A stretch of 64,000 bases of DNA from Spirochaetota bacterium. GTDB taxonomy: Bacteria; Spirochaetota; UBA4802; UBA5550. The stretch is from the NCBI GenBank assembly GCA_050298055.1, contig JBNKTL010000004.1:34223-98222 (forward strand). Direction: 5' to 3'. Made by a program: the position numbers and the translations under genes. Positions 37,805 to 46,124 of the stretch are shown piece after piece; the first letter of the stretch is position 1; every line of letters starts with the position of its first letter. Under the pieces are notes generated by a model. It did no database searches. It was not told the origin of the DNA and saw nothing but the letters and a program-made list of their open reading frames with translations.

Positions 37805-37831
37805 CTGTAATAAATGTGTATCGTCTTTAAT

Positions 37832-37904
<73 letters not shown>

Positions 37905-38215
37905 TTTTTTCATGCCCTCACATTCCCTTCATTAATAATAACGGCCGGTTTGGTTATAGAGTTGCAGATATTTTTCTTTGGAAATTTTTTTTATTCCCGA
38001 AAGTGTAATTATAACGCAAGTACTGGTTTCGTTCCGGGTTCCGTATTGATGATTCTGTCCTAACGAGCGCAACGTGGCTATCTGTTATGGCTTATTAGTG
38101 ATTTAACGAGTGATGCGAGGATGTCTGTTTATAAAATGTTCGCTGCTTAAAGGAACATTGTAATTTATGACAAACAGATCATGACGTCGCTCCACTCCTC
38201 AAGGTGACAGAGTCT

Positions 38216-38980
38216 TTAATGCGAAACTCTCCGTACAATCTCCCTCAGCTTCTCTTTGCCTGCAGGGGACAAACCCAGGGAGTCAATCACTCCTTCAAGC
38301 TCCTTCCGGGACCCGTATCCTCCCGCGAAGCCGTTTACCCGTGCCGCGGCCGTTGACTTGAGAAGATCATTCATGAGGGGATAGATCTTCAGGAATTCAT
38401 CCTTGATGCTTTCCCGCATCTGCAGGTAATACTTTTGATGGTAGTTTTCCGCCCGGGTGAATTGGGAAGCCGGTTTTATTCCCGTATGGATTTCCCTTCT
38501 GACTCTCTCAGCTGTTTCCGCGAGGCTTTTCTCCGCGGTCTTCTTCTGGGATTCGTTCTTGAAAAAAATAAAAGACCGGTACTGATTGCTCATAACGGCC
38601 CGTGTGGGATCGTGCCCTTCCCAGAACTCGTCCAGGAGTTCCCGGTAGCTGATAATATCAGGATCGTAAACGATCTCTATTGCCTCCGAGTGATTGCCTA
38701 TGCTCTTATAGGTGGGTCCTGGCGTTGTTCCGCCGGTATATCCCACCCGTGTTGAAATGACCCCTTTGAGAAGCCCGAACCGGGCATCGGGACCCCAGAA
38801 TCACCCCATGGCAAAAAGGGCGGTTTCGCTTCTTTTGTGTTTCACTTTATCGATTTGAGGGATTTCCCCTTTCTGAGACGCGTTGAGCAGCGGCCTGTTC
38901 ATATTATCCTTCTCCGGAAAGTCAGCAAGTATCCATATAATGAATAAACCTGCGGGAATAAGCAATAATTTTTTTATCAT
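38216..38980 (-). CDS. msrA: Selenocysteine-containing peptide-methionine (S)-S-oxide reductase with an N-terminal signal/anchor
   Basis: Open frame from ATG 38980 (GGAG RBS) through in-frame TGA at 38803-38801 in FAMG-U-FWG, continuing into RVGYTGG, HSEA, QYRS and AENYHQKY. Confidence 0.9.
38773..38803 (-). promoter_or_regulatory. Putative bacterial SECIS element
   Basis: UGA, then 15 nt, then a GCCCG-GUU-CGGGC hairpin with a G-containing apical loop. Confidence 0.6.
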
Positions 38981-39058
38981 GATATCCTATCTCCGTTTTC
39001 ATCGATAGAATTTTTAATACTTTAAGGATAGGGACAATGGATGTGGCAATTGTTACAG

Positions 39059-39084
39059 AATCAGCCCGTAGCCACGGGCTGATT
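39059..39084. repeat. Perfect palindrome (REP- or terminator-like)
   Basis: AATCAGCCCGT-AGCC-ACGGGCTGATT. Confidence 0.6.
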
Positions 39085-39263
39085 ATAAATAGTTTAAGTA
39101 AATCACCGCTTAAACCTTAAGCCGTTAAAGTGGAAATATTACCAATATTAAAAATTTATTCTGAATGTATAATGCGATGGTTACTATAAAATTGAATTTA
39201 ATTAAGTTAAATTACTCTTGACCTTCTGTAAAATACCCATATTCTGGATGCCAATTTAATAAG

Positions 39264-39665
39264 ATGTTCTGCTTTGAAATGATAATAGCGAATCATAAAA
39301 AACGATTTAACCAGGGCGCATCACATTATACCACTGATCGCTATCCCGGTCGCGGACAATGTGTGCGGAAAGTCTTGGAGCTTCTTGATCCACAGCAGGA
39401 CGATGTCATACTCGATCTTGGTTGTGGTCCAGGGATCCAACTCATTGAACTTGCTCATTCAATTAGATCGGGGTATGGAGTCGATCCGGCGGAAGAGATG
39501 ATCCGGCGGGCGAGAGCCGAAGCCGCTGGATATGTAAAAGTGTCTGAACTCCTGCCCGGCGGCGGGCTGTTTGTTCTTGGTGACCTTATGTTCAGTGACG
39601 TCCCTGAGAAACATCAAGATCTCTTTGAGTTTAATGAAACATGCATTTTAAAGAAAAAAAGATAA
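39264..39665 (+). pseudogene. Class I SAM-methyltransferase with an apparent internal deletion
   Basis: ILDLGCGPG and GVDPAEEMI are followed almost directly by LLPGGGLFVLGD; the middle strands and a normal C-terminus are missing. Confidence 0.6.
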
Positions 39666-39693
39666 ATATAAGCGATAAATTATTGTAAATAAA

Positions 39694-40869
39694 ATGCAAT
39701 TAAGTATTAATATTGTATCTCTCATAATTGGCACTGCAGTTATTTTAGGATTATTTATTTCCATCTTGATATTAACGGTTAAAAAGAAAAATAAATCACC
39801 GAATATTATTTTGGCTCTTTTTCTTCTGACTATAACCTTTCCCCTTTCGAATGTTATTCTTTATGAAACTAAGGCTTTCCAGTATATGCCGTATCTGATA
39901 CGATTGGGCGAACCTTTTCGACTACTCATAGCCCCATTTTTTTATTTTTATACTATAGCATTAACTAACGGCAGAATTAAGTGGAACCGATTCTTAATAC
40001 TTAATTTTATTCCTTTTACAGCCAATGTCATTTTTCTATTACCGTTTTATATGGAGCCATCTGACATAAAAGTCAGGTTTATTATGGGCCATTATTTTAC
40101 GCATAAAGTATCTTTTGTTGCTTATCACTTCATCTTCTTCATTATAATGCTGATACAGTTTGCCTTTTATCTCTTTCTGGCAAAAAAAGAGATAAAACAT
40201 TATGAAGTAAAGATAAAAGATACTTTTTCCTCAATCGAAAAAATCAGCCTCTCCTGGCTGAATTCCTTTGCCAATGTGGCTCTGGCATTTTGTATCTTCC
40301 TTCTTGTATTTTGTGCATTTCTCTTCATTTTTGTTATCATACTTGGGCCTTTTAAAAACCAGTTTAGTATTTCCATTCGCCTGTTTCCGAATATTGTTTC
40401 ACTATTGCTTATAGTCATTGTTTTTAAAGCATTGCGTCAGCCGCTGATATTAAGCGACTTTTCCGAAGACAGGAAATATGAGACTCCATTGGAAAAATAT
40501 GAATTATCTAACCTGATTCCGAAAGATGCTGAAAAATATTTGCAGAAACTCATCCGGTATATGGAAGAGGAAAAACCATACCTCCAGCCTGAACTAGCTC
40601 TTAAACAGATCGCAGATAAATTGCAAATCCCGGTACGGCATCTCTCGCAGGTAATTAATGAAAAGATTGGTATGAATTTCTATAATTACATTAATTCATA
40701 CCGTATTGAAGAAATAAAAAAGTATCTCTCCGATCCTGATTTTAAAAAGGAAACCATTCTCAATCTGGCTTATGATGCCGGCTTCAATTCGAAGTCCACC
40801 TTCAATGCTGTTTTTAAAAAAGCCACTGGCCTGACCCCTCAACAATACCGCCGGACAGCATTTAACTAA
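39694..40869 (+). CDS. Membrane-embedded (7TM) AraC-family regulator
   Basis: Multi-TM N-terminus; EKPYLQPEL, LSQVINE, NFYNYINSYR, GFNSKSTFN.VFKK.TGLTP. Confidence 0.92.
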   Translation: MQLSINIVSLIIGTAVILGLFISILILTVKKKNKSPNIILALFLLTITFPLSNVILYETKAFQYMPYLIRLGEPFRLLIAPFFYFYTIALTNGRIKWNRFLILNFIPFTANVIFLLPFYMEPSDIKVRFIMGHYFTHKVSFVAYHFIFFIIMLIQFAFYLFLAKKEIKHYEVKIKDTFSSIEKISLSWLNSFANVALAFCIFLLVFCAFLFIFVIILGPFKNQFSISIRLFPNIVSLLLIVIVFKALRQPLILSDFSEDRKYETPLEKYELSNLIPKDAEKYLQKLIRYMEEEKPYLQPELALKQIADKLQIPVRHLSQVINEKIGMNFYNYINSYRIEEIKKYLSDPDFKKETILNLAYDAGFNSKSTFNAVFKKATGLTPQQYRRTAFN

Positions 40870-41010
40870 AAAAATGTCCGAAAGGATGCTTTCGGACGAC
40901 AAAACCACTTCATCGATAATATTATATAACCAAATGAACCAGACCGGCGGATAGCATCCCGGTCATAAACAAAGTTAACCTTAAAACTCGTTATCAGGAG
41001 GTAACTCATT

Positions 41011-41700
41011 ATGAGTTTGTTAACCATGCATGGTATTTCAAAGACATACCAGGCAGGAGAGATTCAGGTGCCCGCATTAAAAAATATTAATCTCGAAATC
41101 GATGAAAATCTTTTTATTTCCTTTATCGGTCCCTCAGGCAGCGGCAAAACCACGCTGCTTAACTTGATCGGCTGTCTGGACAAACCTACCGAAGGTGAAA
41201 TTTTTATTAATAATGAGAATGTAAACAGGCTGATGCGGAAAGAAGCGGCGGAATTCCGGGGCAGAAATATGGGGTTTATATTCCAGAGTTTTAACCTGGT
41301 GCCTGTGCTGACAGTTTATGAAAATGTGGAATACCCCCTTGTCATGGTGCAGAAACTGCCGGTATCACAAAGGAAAGAGAGAGTTCTGAGACTTCTCGAA
41401 AGGGTCGGCATGATTGATAAAAAAGATCAATTGCCCAACCAGATTTCCGGAGGGCAGAAGCAGAGGACTGCCATAGCAAGGTCGCTGGTATTAAATCCTA
41501 AAATTGTGCTGGCTGACGAGCCTACGGCAAATCTCGATACCGGAACGGCATACAATATCATTAACGTTATGCACGAAATGAAAAAAGAATTCGGAACCAC
41601 ATTTATTTTTTCCACCCATGATCCGAAGATCGTCGGGGAAGCAGAGATTATATACACCCTGGAAGACGGTATTATCATCGGTTCTAAAAAAGTTCATTAA
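41011..41700 (+). CDS. ABC transporter ATP-binding protein (LolD/MacB-like)
   Basis: GPSGSGKT, GFIFQSFNL, ISGGQKQR, LADEPTANLD, STHD. Confidence 0.95.
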   Translation: MSLLTMHGISKTYQAGEIQVPALKNINLEIDENLFISFIGPSGSGKTTLLNLIGCLDKPTEGEIFINNENVNRLMRKEAAEFRGRNMGFIFQSFNLVPVLTVYENVEYPLVMVQKLPVSQRKERVLRLLERVGMIDKKDQLPNQISGGQKQRTAIARSLVLNPKIVLADEPTANLDTGTAYNIINVMHEMKKEFGTTFIFSTHDPKIVGEAEIIYTLEDGIIIGSKKVH

Positions 41701-41712
41701 AGGAGACAAAAA

Positions 41713-42963
41713 ATGAAAAGCATCTTGCAGATTGCACTAAGAAATCTCTTCCGCTATAAAAGGAGAACATATTTAACTACCGGTATTGTCATTTTCGGCG
41801 TTGCCCTGGTGATCGTTTTTTCCGGATTTTCGAATAGCATGAAAAAAGATATGATCAGCGCAATAACAGGCGGACTTTTGGGAGATATACAGATCCATGC
41901 GAATGGTTATGTAGCTTCTATTGAAAGCCTGCCTCTTTATCTTAACATAAATGAAACTCATTATCAGAAACTAAAAAAACTTCTGGATCAAAATCCAAAC
42001 ATTGAAGCTTTCACTCCCAGGATCAAATTCGGTGGCATGGTCAGTAACTATGCCAGAACTTCAGGGATGCGTTTCCTCGCAGTGGATCCTGTCAGCGAAA
42101 TGAAGGTTTGTACCAATCTTCCGTTAAGGATTAGTCCATCCCCGGATCCGGAAAAAGGAGTCATACAAAAAGGTGAAATAGTGATGCCGTCTCTTATCGC
42201 AAACGGCATGTCTATCAAGAAAGGGGATGAGGTTGTCATTCTGGCCAACAATAAAGAAGGCTCAATCAATGCCGTACCATTAAAGGTCGCAGGTATGTCA
42301 GATTCTGTTACAGGTCCGAGCGGACGCGATGCTTATATTCATATTGATGATGCCCAAACTTTACTCAGAATGGGCAGCATTGAGATAAGTGAAGTGGCGA
42401 TAAGACTTAAAAATTTTGATAAGTTAAAAAAAATCCAAAGGAACATCTCTCAGATTTTATCCCAAATTGAGGATGAAAACGGTAAAACCATATTTGAATC
42501 CCATACCTGGCAGGAGCTTTCCCCGGTTGTAACTTTCATCAATGTAATGGATATTTTTAGAATAGTATCCAGATTAATTCTGATAGTAATAGTTTTGATC
42601 AGCATTATGAACGTAATGATCATGTCGGTTTACGAGAGGGTGAGTGAAATAGGCACAATAGCGGCAATCGGGACTGTCCCCTCAAAGATATTATCTATAT
42701 TTCTTTCTGAAGGAATTATCATGGGATTTTTAGGGACCGTTCTTGGGATTGTCGCCGGTTTTATTATTAATTGGATAATCGGTCTTATGAAAATAAACAT
42801 GACCCTGGGGCATATGATGAGGCTGACGCCGCACCCCTTTGTTTATGCAGGTGATATTGTCAGCACCTGTGTTATCGTAATCATTATCGCAGGATTGGCA
42901 AGTCTGGAACCGGCGTTAAAGGCTTCCAAACTTGAACCCGTGGATGCCATGAGGCATAATTGA
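41713..42963 (+). CDS. FtsX/LolE-like ABC permease
   Basis: IALRNLFR..RR, SVYER..EIGT..AIG, PALKASKLEPVDAMR. Confidence 0.93.
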   Translation: MKSILQIALRNLFRYKRRTYLTTGIVIFGVALVIVFSGFSNSMKKDMISAITGGLLGDIQIHANGYVASIESLPLYLNINETHYQKLKKLLDQNPNIEAFTPRIKFGGMVSNYARTSGMRFLAVDPVSEMKVCTNLPLRISPSPDPEKGVIQKGEIVMPSLIANGMSIKKGDEVVILANNKEGSINAVPLKVAGMSDSVTGPSGRDAYIHIDDAQTLLRMGSIEISEVAIRLKNFDKLKKIQRNISQILSQIEDENGKTIFESHTWQELSPVVTFINVMDIFRIVSRLILIVIVLISIMNVMIMSVYERVSEIGTIAAIGTVPSKILSIFLSEGIIMGFLGTVLGIVAGFIINWIIGLMKINMTLGHMMRLTPHPFVYAGDIVSTCVIVIIIAGLASLEPALKASKLEPVDAMRHN

Positions 42964-42981
42964 AAGATTAAGGAGGGATCT

Positions 42982-43749
42982 ATGAAATATAAGATTAAAT
43001 TGCCGGTATTCGTCATCATAATATTTTTTTGTTTAATATTGAATGTATTCCCGGGGGACAATATTTCGAAAAAAGGAAATAGAATATTGGAACAGATCGA
43101 CAGGAGCCTGATGCCTGTTTCATATGAATCCTACAGAAAGCTTATTAATATTGAACCGGATGGAAGAAAAAAAGAATTCGTATTATATACGATTAAACGC
43201 GGAGCGAATAAGCTTGCTATGCTCTATTTATCACCCCCGATTGACAAAGATAAGGCGACCCTTCGTCTGGGCGATAACATGTGGTTATATATGCCAAACA
43301 TCGGTAAACCGCTCAGGATCACAAGCATACAATCAGTCACAGGCGGTGTCTTTAGCAACGCGGATATCATGCTGTTGGATTATCACGTTGAATATAATGC
43401 TGTCAATCTGGAAGAAAAAGATGATGAATATTATCTTATGCTGAAAGCTAAAACCAATGCCGTGGCTTATGACAAATTAAAGATGTGGGTAAAAAAAAGC
43501 GGGACAATCGTTAAGAGTATCAAAAAGGTTGAATGTTACTCCGCATCCAATATGCTTTTGAAGACACTGGAATTTAAAAATATAAAAGATTTCGGAGGCA
43601 ACCTGGTCCGTCCTTCGGTAATCGAGACATACAGCCCTCTTTATAAAGGGTATAAATCATATATGATTATTTTAAAAGTTAAGGAAAGAATATTTCCGCA
43701 TGAAGTATTTTCACTTAATTATTTACCGCGGTTAAAGAATTTAAAATGA
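42982..43749 (+). CDS. LolA-like outer-membrane lipoprotein-sorting protein
   Basis: SPPIDK..TLR..DNMWLYMP....LRI, GGVFSNAD, YDKLKMWV. Confidence 0.85.
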   Translation: MKYKIKLPVFVIIIFFCLILNVFPGDNISKKGNRILEQIDRSLMPVSYESYRKLINIEPDGRKKEFVLYTIKRGANKLAMLYLSPPIDKDKATLRLGDNMWLYMPNIGKPLRITSIQSVTGGVFSNADIMLLDYHVEYNAVNLEEKDDEYYLMLKAKTNAVAYDKLKMWVKKSGTIVKSIKKVECYSASNMLLKTLEFKNIKDFGGNLVRPSVIETYSPLYKGYKSYMIILKVKERIFPHEVFSLNYLPRLKNLK

Positions 43750-45068
43750 AAACAATAAAGTTATTATTGATTCTGCTTATAATCTCCAGGACTGCATTTG
43801 CTGCAGATGATGATATTGATGTCTCTAAGATCACAAATATCCCCGATATTGAAAAAACGGACACTCAAGAAAACAACATAATCGAACTTCCCCTTAAAAT
43901 CAGCGGTATTCTGGATGGGAAATGGCAGATATATCAGCTGAGAATAGGTTCGCCGTATTACAAACTTAATTATTACGGTCAGGAGAATATTAATCCAAAT
44001 CTATCTTTATATCTTTTTGAATTATTTCTCAATGGTGATTATTCAGGCAAAAATTATGGGCTTCATATAAAAACTCATAGCACATATATTGACGAAGAAA
44101 ATAAAGATTTTACTGTGTATGAAGCGTATAATTATTTAAATATCGGTTCAATGTTTTCCCTGGAGTTTGGTAAAAAGATATTTGGATGGGGGAAGGGGTA
44201 TATAATAAATCCTGCAGGATATTTTAATCCAAAAAAAGATATTGAAAATCCGGAACAGGCACAGGAGGGAATACTTGCTTCTCAAATCGAGTTTACAAAA
44301 AGTTTTAATTCGGATATATTGGGAACCTTTGCATTAACATTTGTCGTTGTTCCCCCATCTCCGGTTATTAATGACACATACGGTGAGTTGGGAAAGACGG
44401 AATACGGCGCTAAACTGTATTTTCTTTTCCTCGATACAGATATCGATTTTTTATCTTATTATATTGACCAAACTCATTATCAGTACGGATTGGATTTATC
44501 AGGAAACATAGGGGATTATTTTGAGGTTCACGGAGAATTGAATTATTTTCATAATAAATATGTATATCTTTTTGAAAATGATACTATCTTAAATCCAAAA
44601 AACAAAAAAGGTATAAGTTATCTTGCCGGCTTCCGTTTCGTGCCCCGGTATGATCTCAAAGTTATTGGTGAATATTATCATAATGACGCCGGATTGAGCG
44701 AAGATGAATATAAAGATTATCTTTCTTTTATGGAGAGAAGCTATGAGAGTAATGATCCGGCTATAATACAAAAAGCAAAAGGAATTGTTAAAAGCAATTT
44801 AAAATCACAGATGCTGATGAAAGATTATGCATATATGAAGATAACAAAAACGGATCTATTCGGTATTCTCTATCTTTCACTATCGCCTTATATCCTGTTT
44901 AATATTCGGGATAAGAGCTTTATCACCGGTCCGGAAATATCATATAATCCATTTTCAAATTTTGAACTGGCTTTAAAACAGTTATCTTTCATAGGAAAGG
45001 ATGATTCCGAATATGGCAGCAAACAAAATAGATTGATGTATGGATTTGAAATGAGAGTGTATTTTTAA
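43746..45068 (+). CDS. Putative outer-membrane beta-barrel protein
   Basis: Signal peptide, GKKIFGWGKG...NP, EYYHN, C-terminal aromatic residue (RVYF). Confidence 0.75.
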   Translation: MKTIKLLLILLIISRTAFAADDDIDVSKITNIPDIEKTDTQENNIIELPLKISGILDGKWQIYQLRIGSPYYKLNYYGQENINPNLSLYLFELFLNGDYSGKNYGLHIKTHSTYIDEENKDFTVYEAYNYLNIGSMFSLEFGKKIFGWGKGYIINPAGYFNPKKDIENPEQAQEGILASQIEFTKSFNSDILGTFALTFVVVPPSPVINDTYGELGKTEYGAKLYFLFLDTDIDFLSYYIDQTHYQYGLDLSGNIGDYFEVHGELNYFHNKYVYLFENDTILNPKNKKGISYLAGFRFVPRYDLKVIGEYYHNDAGLSEDEYKDYLSFMERSYESNDPAIIQKAKGIVKSNLKSQMLMKDYAYMKITKTDLFGILYLSLSPYILFNIRDKSFITGPEISYNPFSNFELALKQLSFIGKDDSEYGSKQNRLMYGFEMRVYF

Positions 45069-45746
45069 ATTAAAGGTTATTATTTATTATTTAGCAATAA
45101 ATTACTGCTGACCAGACCAGTAAGTGCGGCATTTGGAGAAAACACTTTTTTTTTTGCAATCTTTGCGTCCCGGCGGTTCAGAAAAAGTGTGAATGAAAAT
45201 CCTTCAAACAGAACTCGCACCGGAAAGGCTGAACCGAATAATCGAGTCATCCGATAAATTTACACTGATCTCATAGCCGAGAAAATCCGAGAGGGATTGA
45301 ACAAGGGGAAGACCCAGGCCGCTGTGCCCCGATCCGGAGGTCCGCGCGGTGTCCTTCCTCCAGAACCTTTCGAACATCCTCTCCAGGTCCTCATTGTATC
45401 GAATTAAGATCTCCTTTGAGATCTCTTTCCTGGATTTATTGCTGTTGAGAATATTTTTAATAAATTGGGATAGTTTTCTGGGACGAAGAATTATCGGGGT
45501 ACCCAGACTTATATCCCAGGTCAGTGATTTGTCAAATATTAATCAGATTGAGTTTTCTTCTCTTAACGGGAATAATATAAATTCTAACATTACGGGAAGA
45601 TGACTAAAAAATTAAAAAAATTTTGTCCTATTCATCTCTAAAATGCACTATATAATGATAGATCATTAATAAGGATATGTCCATACCGTGGTTGGCGGCG
45701 GTATATCTTTTATTATGTTTTTAATGAATATGATTATTATGCATAG

Positions 45747-46124
45747 ATGAGTCGTTACATCCGGACTATGAAAAATAAAAACTTTACACTTGAATATCTC
45801 CCCAATTCTATTATCCTGAAATTACATCTGGATGAACTTGACCTCATGACTTCACCTAAGATCGCACCGGGTATTGAGTCTGTGATAAAAAATATCAGTG
45901 ACACACATCTTATCATTGATATAGACAGGCTGGACTATATCGACTCCACGGGCATATCGCTTATCTTTTCCATAATAAAGACATGCAGTAAGAAGGAAGT
46001 GATCATATCCATAATCTGTAAAAATGAGAAGATCAGGCAATTCTTCAGTCTGTTCAGCATGAACTTCAACTTTACCTTTTATCCGGATATTGAAGAAGTC
46101 TTTAAAAAATTCCCCGATAAGTGA
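45747..46124 (+). CDS. STAS domain anti-sigma-factor antagonist
   Basis: LDYIDSTGISL motif. Confidence 0.85.
   Translation: MSRYIRTMKNKNFTLEYLPNSIILKLHLDELDLMTSPKIAPGIESVIKNISDTHLIIDIDRLDYIDSTGISLIFSIIKTCSKKEVIISIICKNEKIRQFFSLFSMNFNFTFYPDIEEVFKKFPDK

Follow-up and report, generated by a model that had tools for sequence, protein, structure and literature searches.

The reverse strand of the window, a stretch of 64,000 nucleotides from a Spirochaetota bacterium (GCA_050298055.1, contig JBNKTL010000004.1), carries an msrA gene whose frame runs uninterrupted from ATG to stop for 254 codons when its single in-frame TGA is counted as selenocysteine (Sec) (Table 1). The TGA is codon 60, in the context GGG TGA TTC TGG GGT, and the frame 3′ of it stays intact for 194 codons. 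The encoded protein holds no cysteine over its entire length. In the annotation the ORF starts at 38746, and the deposited protein (P0002) is a truncated stub of 176 residues that lacks the catalytic motif. Because gene callers cut such proteins at the UGA, databases hide the exported or two-start MsrA layout that is proposed below. The TGA is covered by contigs of two runs, X1 and X2, which show no alternative letters there; these are not independent, because both may be the source of the window DNA. Scans for promoters and terminators gave results at chance level. No MsrA match other than this gene occurs in the host genome, which is 98% complete, and MsrB is also present as a single gene.

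Table 1. Features of the msrA locus, in window coordinates.
Feature	Position	Strand	Basis
msrA coding sequence, long isoform, 254 aa, TGA counted as Sec	38216..38980	-	Reading frame, profile and PDB matches
In-frame TGA, predicted Sec60 in GUFWG	38801..38803	-	Reading frame; contig letters of runs X1 and X2
SECIS-like hairpin core GCCCG-GTT-CGGGC, loop G	38773..38785	-	15 nt 3′ of the TGA; contrast between homologues
PMSR catalytic domain, residues 53-190, with Y91, E99, Q133, Y134, H181, Y184	38411..38824	-	Profile, alignment
MsrA_helical domain (PF20939), residues 205-249, CoMsrA type	38234..38368	-	Profile, structure model
IPQID, the family-conserved IPPID arm at -20 to -16	38849..38863	-	Homologue alignment
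Residues 1-19, basic n-region and hydrophobic h-region; predicted to act as a Sec-type signal peptide or as a membrane anchor; lipobox absent	38924..38980	-	Hydrophobicity; family comparison
Shine-Dalgarno-like site of start 1, GGAGATAGGA, duplex -6.6 kcal/mol	38985..38994	-	SD energy
Internal Shine-Dalgarno-like site, GGAGAAGGA, -6.6 kcal/mol, the same as for start 1	38907..38915	-	SD energy
Met27 ATG, 33 codons 5′ of the UGA; predicted second start of a 228-aa cytoplasmic isoform	38900..38902	-	Homologue comparison

The surroundings of the gene contain several further features. A short dispersed repeat lies 3′ of msrA (38056-38228), with partial copies of 70-93% identity on contigs C4, C9, C13, C16, C17, C33 and C34. 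On the plus strand, a methyltransferase-like ORF of 133 residues (39264-39665) looks internally truncated, and part of it recurs in similar form on C43. An AT-rich block (39000-46000, GC 0.32-0.41) containing genes for an AraC membrane regulator, an ABC transporter and LolA-like proteins adjoins msrA and a tRNA-Phe gene (37831-37905); no att duplication was found. A genomic island at the tRNA-Phe is unsupported, as the 3′ end of the tRNA is unrepeated on C4 and the gene has a GC content of 0.495 against 0.444 for the genome.

Homologue sets and criteria

Homologues comprised 14 genome loci, 80 metagenome loci and the window itself, giving 95 records, of which 92 were parsed (L067, L140 and L188 were left out). 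Removal of six records at 80% identity left 86, with TGA at the catalytic site in 75 and Cys in 11. Six of the TGA records are incomplete upstream, so that 69 could be evaluated for a leader. A hold-out of 40 loci, five of which were dropped as near-duplicates, supplied another 33 TGA and 2 Cys genes. Signals and leaders were assigned by a hydrophobicity rule, and a gene was taken to pass the second-start rule when an ATG with a Shine-Dalgarno (SD) energy of -5 or below lies within 30 codons 3′ of the hydrophobic stretch. These energies were calculated with a generic anti-SD, which may differ from the 16S tail of each host. Formal p-values overstate the case, because the homologues are kin and not independent. 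The homologue tree was built by a quick method and has 11 well-supported inner branches out of 73.

Decoding of the UGA codon

The host genome encodes the machinery for selenocysteine. The selA, selB and tRNA-Sec genes lie together on contig C5, while selD, itself with an in-frame TGA, is found on C39. A second match above the tRNA-Sec cut-off occurs at G000:C17:82992-83081 (L015; 61.1 bits). Across genomes, selA accompanies TGA-containing MsrA in 12 of 12 cases and is present in one of four genomes chosen for a Cys MsrA; this lone positive genome also carries two TGA MsrA paralogues. Of four MsrA matches seen in G132, the genome of L061, half have TGA and half Cys.

The hairpin downstream of the TGA is by itself no more stable than shuffled sequences (z -0.16 to -0.80), and for this reason it was judged by comparison of homologues. 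With the amino acids already constrained by the search pattern, synonymous positions are the informative ones. Of the 75 TGA homologues, 71 retain the three core pairs and the loop G, as does none of the 11 Cys homologues, seven of which belong to a single clade; the hold-out loci give 32/33 and 0/2, respectively. The third position of the Gly codon is G in 71/75 TGA genes against 1/11 Cys genes, and the loop position is G in 74/75 against 4/11. Third positions beyond the stem vary freely, and the closing pair (+20:+24) is G-C in 51 genes, A-U in 13 and unpaired in 11. A de novo scan of the genome for a TGA followed by a hairpin returned 1143 candidates and was too noisy for use. Taken from sequence, the evidence makes it very likely that the in-frame UGA is read as selenocysteine.

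Much of this had been anticipated by the original prediction, which was drawn from the letters of the window. It traced the frame to the ATG at 38980 through one TGA at the catalytic position of GCFWG, and recomputation gives the same result. The start of the ORF track at 38746, the lack of cysteine and the GCCCG-GTT-CGGGC hairpin 15 nt past the TGA were all recovered. The prediction also proposed that the host uses selenocysteine, for which the four genes selA, selB, selC (tRNA-Sec) and selD, whose lack would have meant a pseudogene, and the SECIS contrast now provide support. The suggested search for Cys/TGA alternation yielded the 75 TGA and 11 Cys genes described above, and neither TGC nor TGT occurs at the codon in the X1 or X2 contigs.

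A CoMsrA-type enzyme

Membership in the MsrA family is indicated by matches to PF01625 (PMSR; 151.1 bits, cut-off 23.7) and TIGR00401 (130, cut-off 108.1). A C-terminal match to PF20939 (MsrA_helical; 35.1 bits, cut-off 23.7) is modeled with a pLDDT of 92. The closest PDB entries, both by sequence and by fold, are those of MsrA from Clostridium oremlandii (CoMsrA), with 43% identity and a TM score of 0.90 over the target (4lwj). The reference residues of CoMsrA are the G-U/C-FWG motif, Tyr47, Glu55, Gln89, Tyr90, His137 and Tyr140 (PMC4333827). All 11 listed active-site positions align in the window protein (G59, U60, F61, W62, G63, Y91, E99, Q133, Y134, H181 and Y184), and the TGA aligns with Cys/Sec16 of CoMsrA. 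CoMsrA is described as a Sec enzyme of 209 residues with no Cys and no leader, which is reduced by glutaredoxin and not by thioredoxin (PMC4479559). The missing cysteine is therefore unsurprising, being the normal state of the CoMsrA family, and the precedent of a Sec-MsrA without a resolving Cys that the original prediction had cited from Alkaliphilus oremlandii fits this enzyme (PMC4479559).

Together with the evidence for Sec, these matches leave hardly any doubt that the product is a CoMsrA-type methionine-S-sulfoxide reductase with Sec (Sec-MsrA). It shares with the enzyme of Clostridium/Alkaliphilus oremlandii OhILAs (PDB 4LWJ-4LWM, 4U66, 4W8C and 7C13) the GUFWG motif, the active-site residues, the C-terminal helical domain and the absence of Cys. 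However, whereas CoMsrA is leaderless with Sec at residue 16, the window protein has an N-terminus of 59 residues with a hydrophobic leader. The window gene further differs in its internal SD and ATG, its IPxID arm and its diderm spirochaete host.

Other members of the family show variations of their own. Many homologues (L136, L139, L147, L150 and many protein matches) have a short C-terminal tail with one Cys (PGCP, PAC), which could serve as a resolving Cys and is absent from the window protein. Three proteins with spider names (P0106, P0114 and P0119) score among the helical-type MsrA matches, which suggests that some animal MsrAs resemble this subfamily. In the class of the host, helical-domain MsrA was found in four of 122 genomes, and the search pattern matched in four of 401 genomes of the phylum. 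This patchy spread hints at transfer without proving it; a donor lineage taken from the tree was rejected, since the gene falls in no well-supported set.

The N-terminal leader

The best Kyte-Doolittle 11-mer of the N-terminus scores 2.85, in agreement with the hydrophobic character that had been noted for it. A hydrophobic in-frame extension is present in 56 of the 69 evaluable TGA homologues and in 20 of the 33 hold-out genes (13/69 and 13/33 are without one), as compared with 115 of 3246 (3.5%) shifted frames of the host genome. Among the 56 leader-bearing homologues, 21 have a lipobox-like Cys and 44 an SD-led start upstream. The leaders are of several kinds, including lipoprotein, Tat-like and plain types. 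The window protein has no lipobox Cys, and its leader would thus be a cleaved signal or an anchor. Within the host class, two of the three other Sec-MsrA genes are leaderless (L257 and L258). The host is a spirochaete with three FlaA matches in its genome, and spirochaetes possess a periplasm.

The long form is very probably exported or anchored in the membrane. The earlier proposal of an extracytoplasmic enzyme gains from the leaders of the homologues; it was incomplete in that it overlooked the second start and with it a likely cytoplasmic form. Exported bacterial selenoproteins have been described before, among them SaoB, which combines a signal peptide with an in-frame Sec codon (bioRxiv 10.1101/2022.07.06.499078). 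SaoB is a substrate-binding protein, unlike the repair enzyme encoded in the window, and MsrA is unmentioned in the available portion of that source.

A probable second start at Met27

Met27 lies seven residues past the hydrophobic stretch. The second-start rule is passed by 32 of the 56 leader-bearing homologues and by 13 of 20 in the hold-out (24/56 and 7/20 fail), against 25 of 403 other signal-like proteins of the host genome. The internal SD is stronger than synonymous recodings would provide, both in the homologues (-7.57 vs -5.93, 0/500 as strong) and in the hold-out (-7.44 vs -4.93, 0/500). Shuffling of the linker codons gave a mean of 8.4 and a maximum of 14 genes, against 31 of 56 observed. 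Only 14% of 119 downstream ATGs have a comparable SD. The internal SD is found in each of the three frames, at a distance from the ATG of 5-9 nt in most cases. Met stands at exactly -33 in 17 of the 56 genes; the rest of the linker is unconserved. The genes with this Met are scattered over the tree (Chloroflexota, Bacillota and unplaced lineages), with a median domain identity of 53%. These comparisons make it probable that both starts of msrA are used. In five of seven genomes with a two-start gene (G000, G089, G122, G124 and G126; not G123 and G125), it is the sole MsrA found, a count from a small sample of partly incomplete genomes.

The same layout is found in other Msr genes. In relatives of the host, 22 of 29 Cys Msr genes, which are non-orthologous, have a leader and 11 of these 22 pass the second-start rule, as do seven of nine MsrB-first fusions among them; the synonymous SD test of these genes gave 1/500. 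Among the msrB neighbors of Sec-msrA, a leader with a second start was seen by eye in five of eight. The single msrB of the host (G000:C2:153920-154453, minus strand; L053) encodes a twin-arginine-like leader (RRGFLK), after which there are a weak internal ATG site and a strong GTG site, both with SD-like sequences; TatC is present in the genome. Cys msrA loci from other phyla have a leader in one of 66 cases (seven unparsed). The second-start layout is not selenium-specific, being shared by Cys MsrA, MsrB-MsrA and msrB genes, and a tie between the -33 start and UGA decoding was for that reason discarded as the main explanation.

Probable supply of two compartments by one gene

The reading that best accounts for the locus, to which we assign a probability of roughly 0.6, is that of a CoMsrA-type Sec-MsrA whose two starts yield an exported and a cytoplasmic form. 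Translation from Met1 would produce a precursor that passes through the inner membrane and is either cleaved after about Ala19 or kept as an anchored protein, and this long form would mend oxidized methionines in the spirochaete periplasm. Initiation at Met27 would bypass the leader, leaving an enzyme of 228 residues in the cytoplasm. Because the gene is the only MsrA match of the genome, two starts would serve both compartments. A precedent is found in Neisseria PilB, for which a periplasmic form and a cytoplasmic form made from an internal AUG (Met195) are described, with DsbD as the proposed periplasmic source of electrons (PMC6210582). The likeness to PilB would be confined to the predicted dual start, through which one msr gene supplies two compartments. 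PilB relies on Cys and joins Trx-like, MsrA and MsrB domains in one polypeptide, whereas the window protein consists of PMSR and MsrA_helical with a Sec nucleophile. To make its short form PilB sheds an entire domain; the window MsrA would shed the leader alone and has no fused reductant (PMC6210582).

The strongest alternative, which we consider unlikely, holds that the exported or anchored form is the sole product and that the internal SD and ATG are a relic of an ancestral cytoplasmic start, or a pause site. Five leaderless Cys homologues are annotated to start at -33, possibly the ancestral start; the several leader types fit repeated gains, and the internal start has been lost in many homologues. 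A relic does not readily explain why the SD exceeds the expectation from synonymous recoding in three sets, why it persists amid an unconserved linker, even in the pair L137/L204 with its change of 15 codons in downstream spacing, or why the layout recurs ahead of MsrB domains. At a pause site, the ATG would be needless.

Considerably less probable is that Met27 is the sole start of a cytoplasmic enzyme like CoMsrA and that the hydrophobic extension is untranslated or due to chance. The leaderless state of CoMsrA (209 residues; PMC4479559) and of L257 and L258, the low pLDDT over residues 1-30 and the partial masking of the first SD by local folding (mean unpaired 0.47 vs 0.59) are in its favor. 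They are opposed by the excess of in-frame extensions over the 3.5% null, by the lipoboxes and upstream SD-led starts of the homologues, and by the equal strength of the two SD sites in the window gene. That the TGA is a nonsense mutation or an assembly error in a dead gene would suit the unexceptional stability of the hairpin by itself but is scarcely credible, given a TGA conserved at the site in 75/86 records, the SECIS contrast between TGA and Cys genes, a full Sec machinery, the intact frame past the TGA and the identical letters in contigs of two runs.

Candidates for recycling

The original prediction had asked what recycles the enzyme, and the host genome offers candidate answers. It encodes a DsbD-like protein (C9) carrying both a signal and a Trx domain, several exported TlpA-like proteins and one Grx-like protein (C15). 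On C22, two adjacent genes encode predicted lipoprotein selenoproteins, a UPIC thioredoxin (C22:25330-25707, with an in-frame TGA) and a TxxU peroxiredoxin (G000:C22:25330-26253, minus strand; L262 and L273). This pair lies near a Tat-signal molybdoenzyme-like gene pair that is split at a TGA (C22:26872-30054). Related UxxC thioredoxins are encoded next to ccdA in two further genomes whose Sec-MsrA bears a leader; the better of the two matches the C22 protein at only 27% identity.

In the proposed scheme, a partner of thioredoxin fold would react directly with the oxidized Sec, like Grx with CoMsrA. The best candidate recycler in the periplasm would be the UPIC thioredoxin lipoprotein, fed by the DsbD-like protein; the Grx-like protein may recycle the short form in the cytoplasm. 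The scheme is modeled on the CcdA-Etrx-MsrAB2 system of Streptococcus pneumoniae, in which an anchored extracellular Msr is recycled by CcdA-fed thioredoxin-fold lipoproteins (PMC3914529). That system uses a Cys-based MsrAB fusion in a monoderm and its partner link is shown, whereas the link here is drawn by analogy (PMC3914529). A Trx-like partner is disfavored, because thioredoxin does not reduce CoMsrA (PMC4479559). The complete chain, DsbD-like protein to UPIC thioredoxin outside and Grx-like protein inside, is put forward as a tentative suggestion.

Gene neighborhoods did not point to a partner. Among 50 neighbors scanned out of 96, picked as close and on the same strand, no reductant gene is conserved beside the homologues; msrB is the commonest (eight, and one msrAB), and one AhpC/TSA-like gene was seen. 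A recycling partner identified by neighborhood was thus rejected. The co-occurrence of DsbD or CcdA is uninformative, with 15 of 16 genomes positive, leader-bearing and leaderless alike.

Meaning for the Msr family

The type of enzyme is already known, and the variant part lies in the predicted combination of a leader with a second start. No description of an exported or dual-start Sec-MsrA was found in the literature searched, with most subscription journals outside its scope, nor did a word search of the text available for PMC13188914, PMC13326102, PMC9312934 and PMC13515050 return such a passage. Characterized Sec-MsrA is short and leaderless; most of the relatives sampled here look exported and have a second start. 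The placing of a conserved internal ribosome-binding site after a leader could be a general, convergent design of Msr genes (Sec-MsrA, Cys-MsrA, MsrB-MsrA and MsrB) in many uncultured bacteria, by which a single gene would repair proteins on both sides of the membrane, and which here would feed a selenium-based periplasmic chain of DsbD, UxxC thioredoxin lipoprotein and Sec-MsrA, with a Sec-peroxiredoxin lipoprotein encoded beside the thioredoxin; on sequence comparisons, we rate this as a little short of even odds. If both starts are used, dual targeting in the manner of PilB would be a widespread rule among Msr enzymes and not an oddity of Neisseria, and the gene would provide a model of extracytoplasmic recycling for an enzyme with a single Sec.
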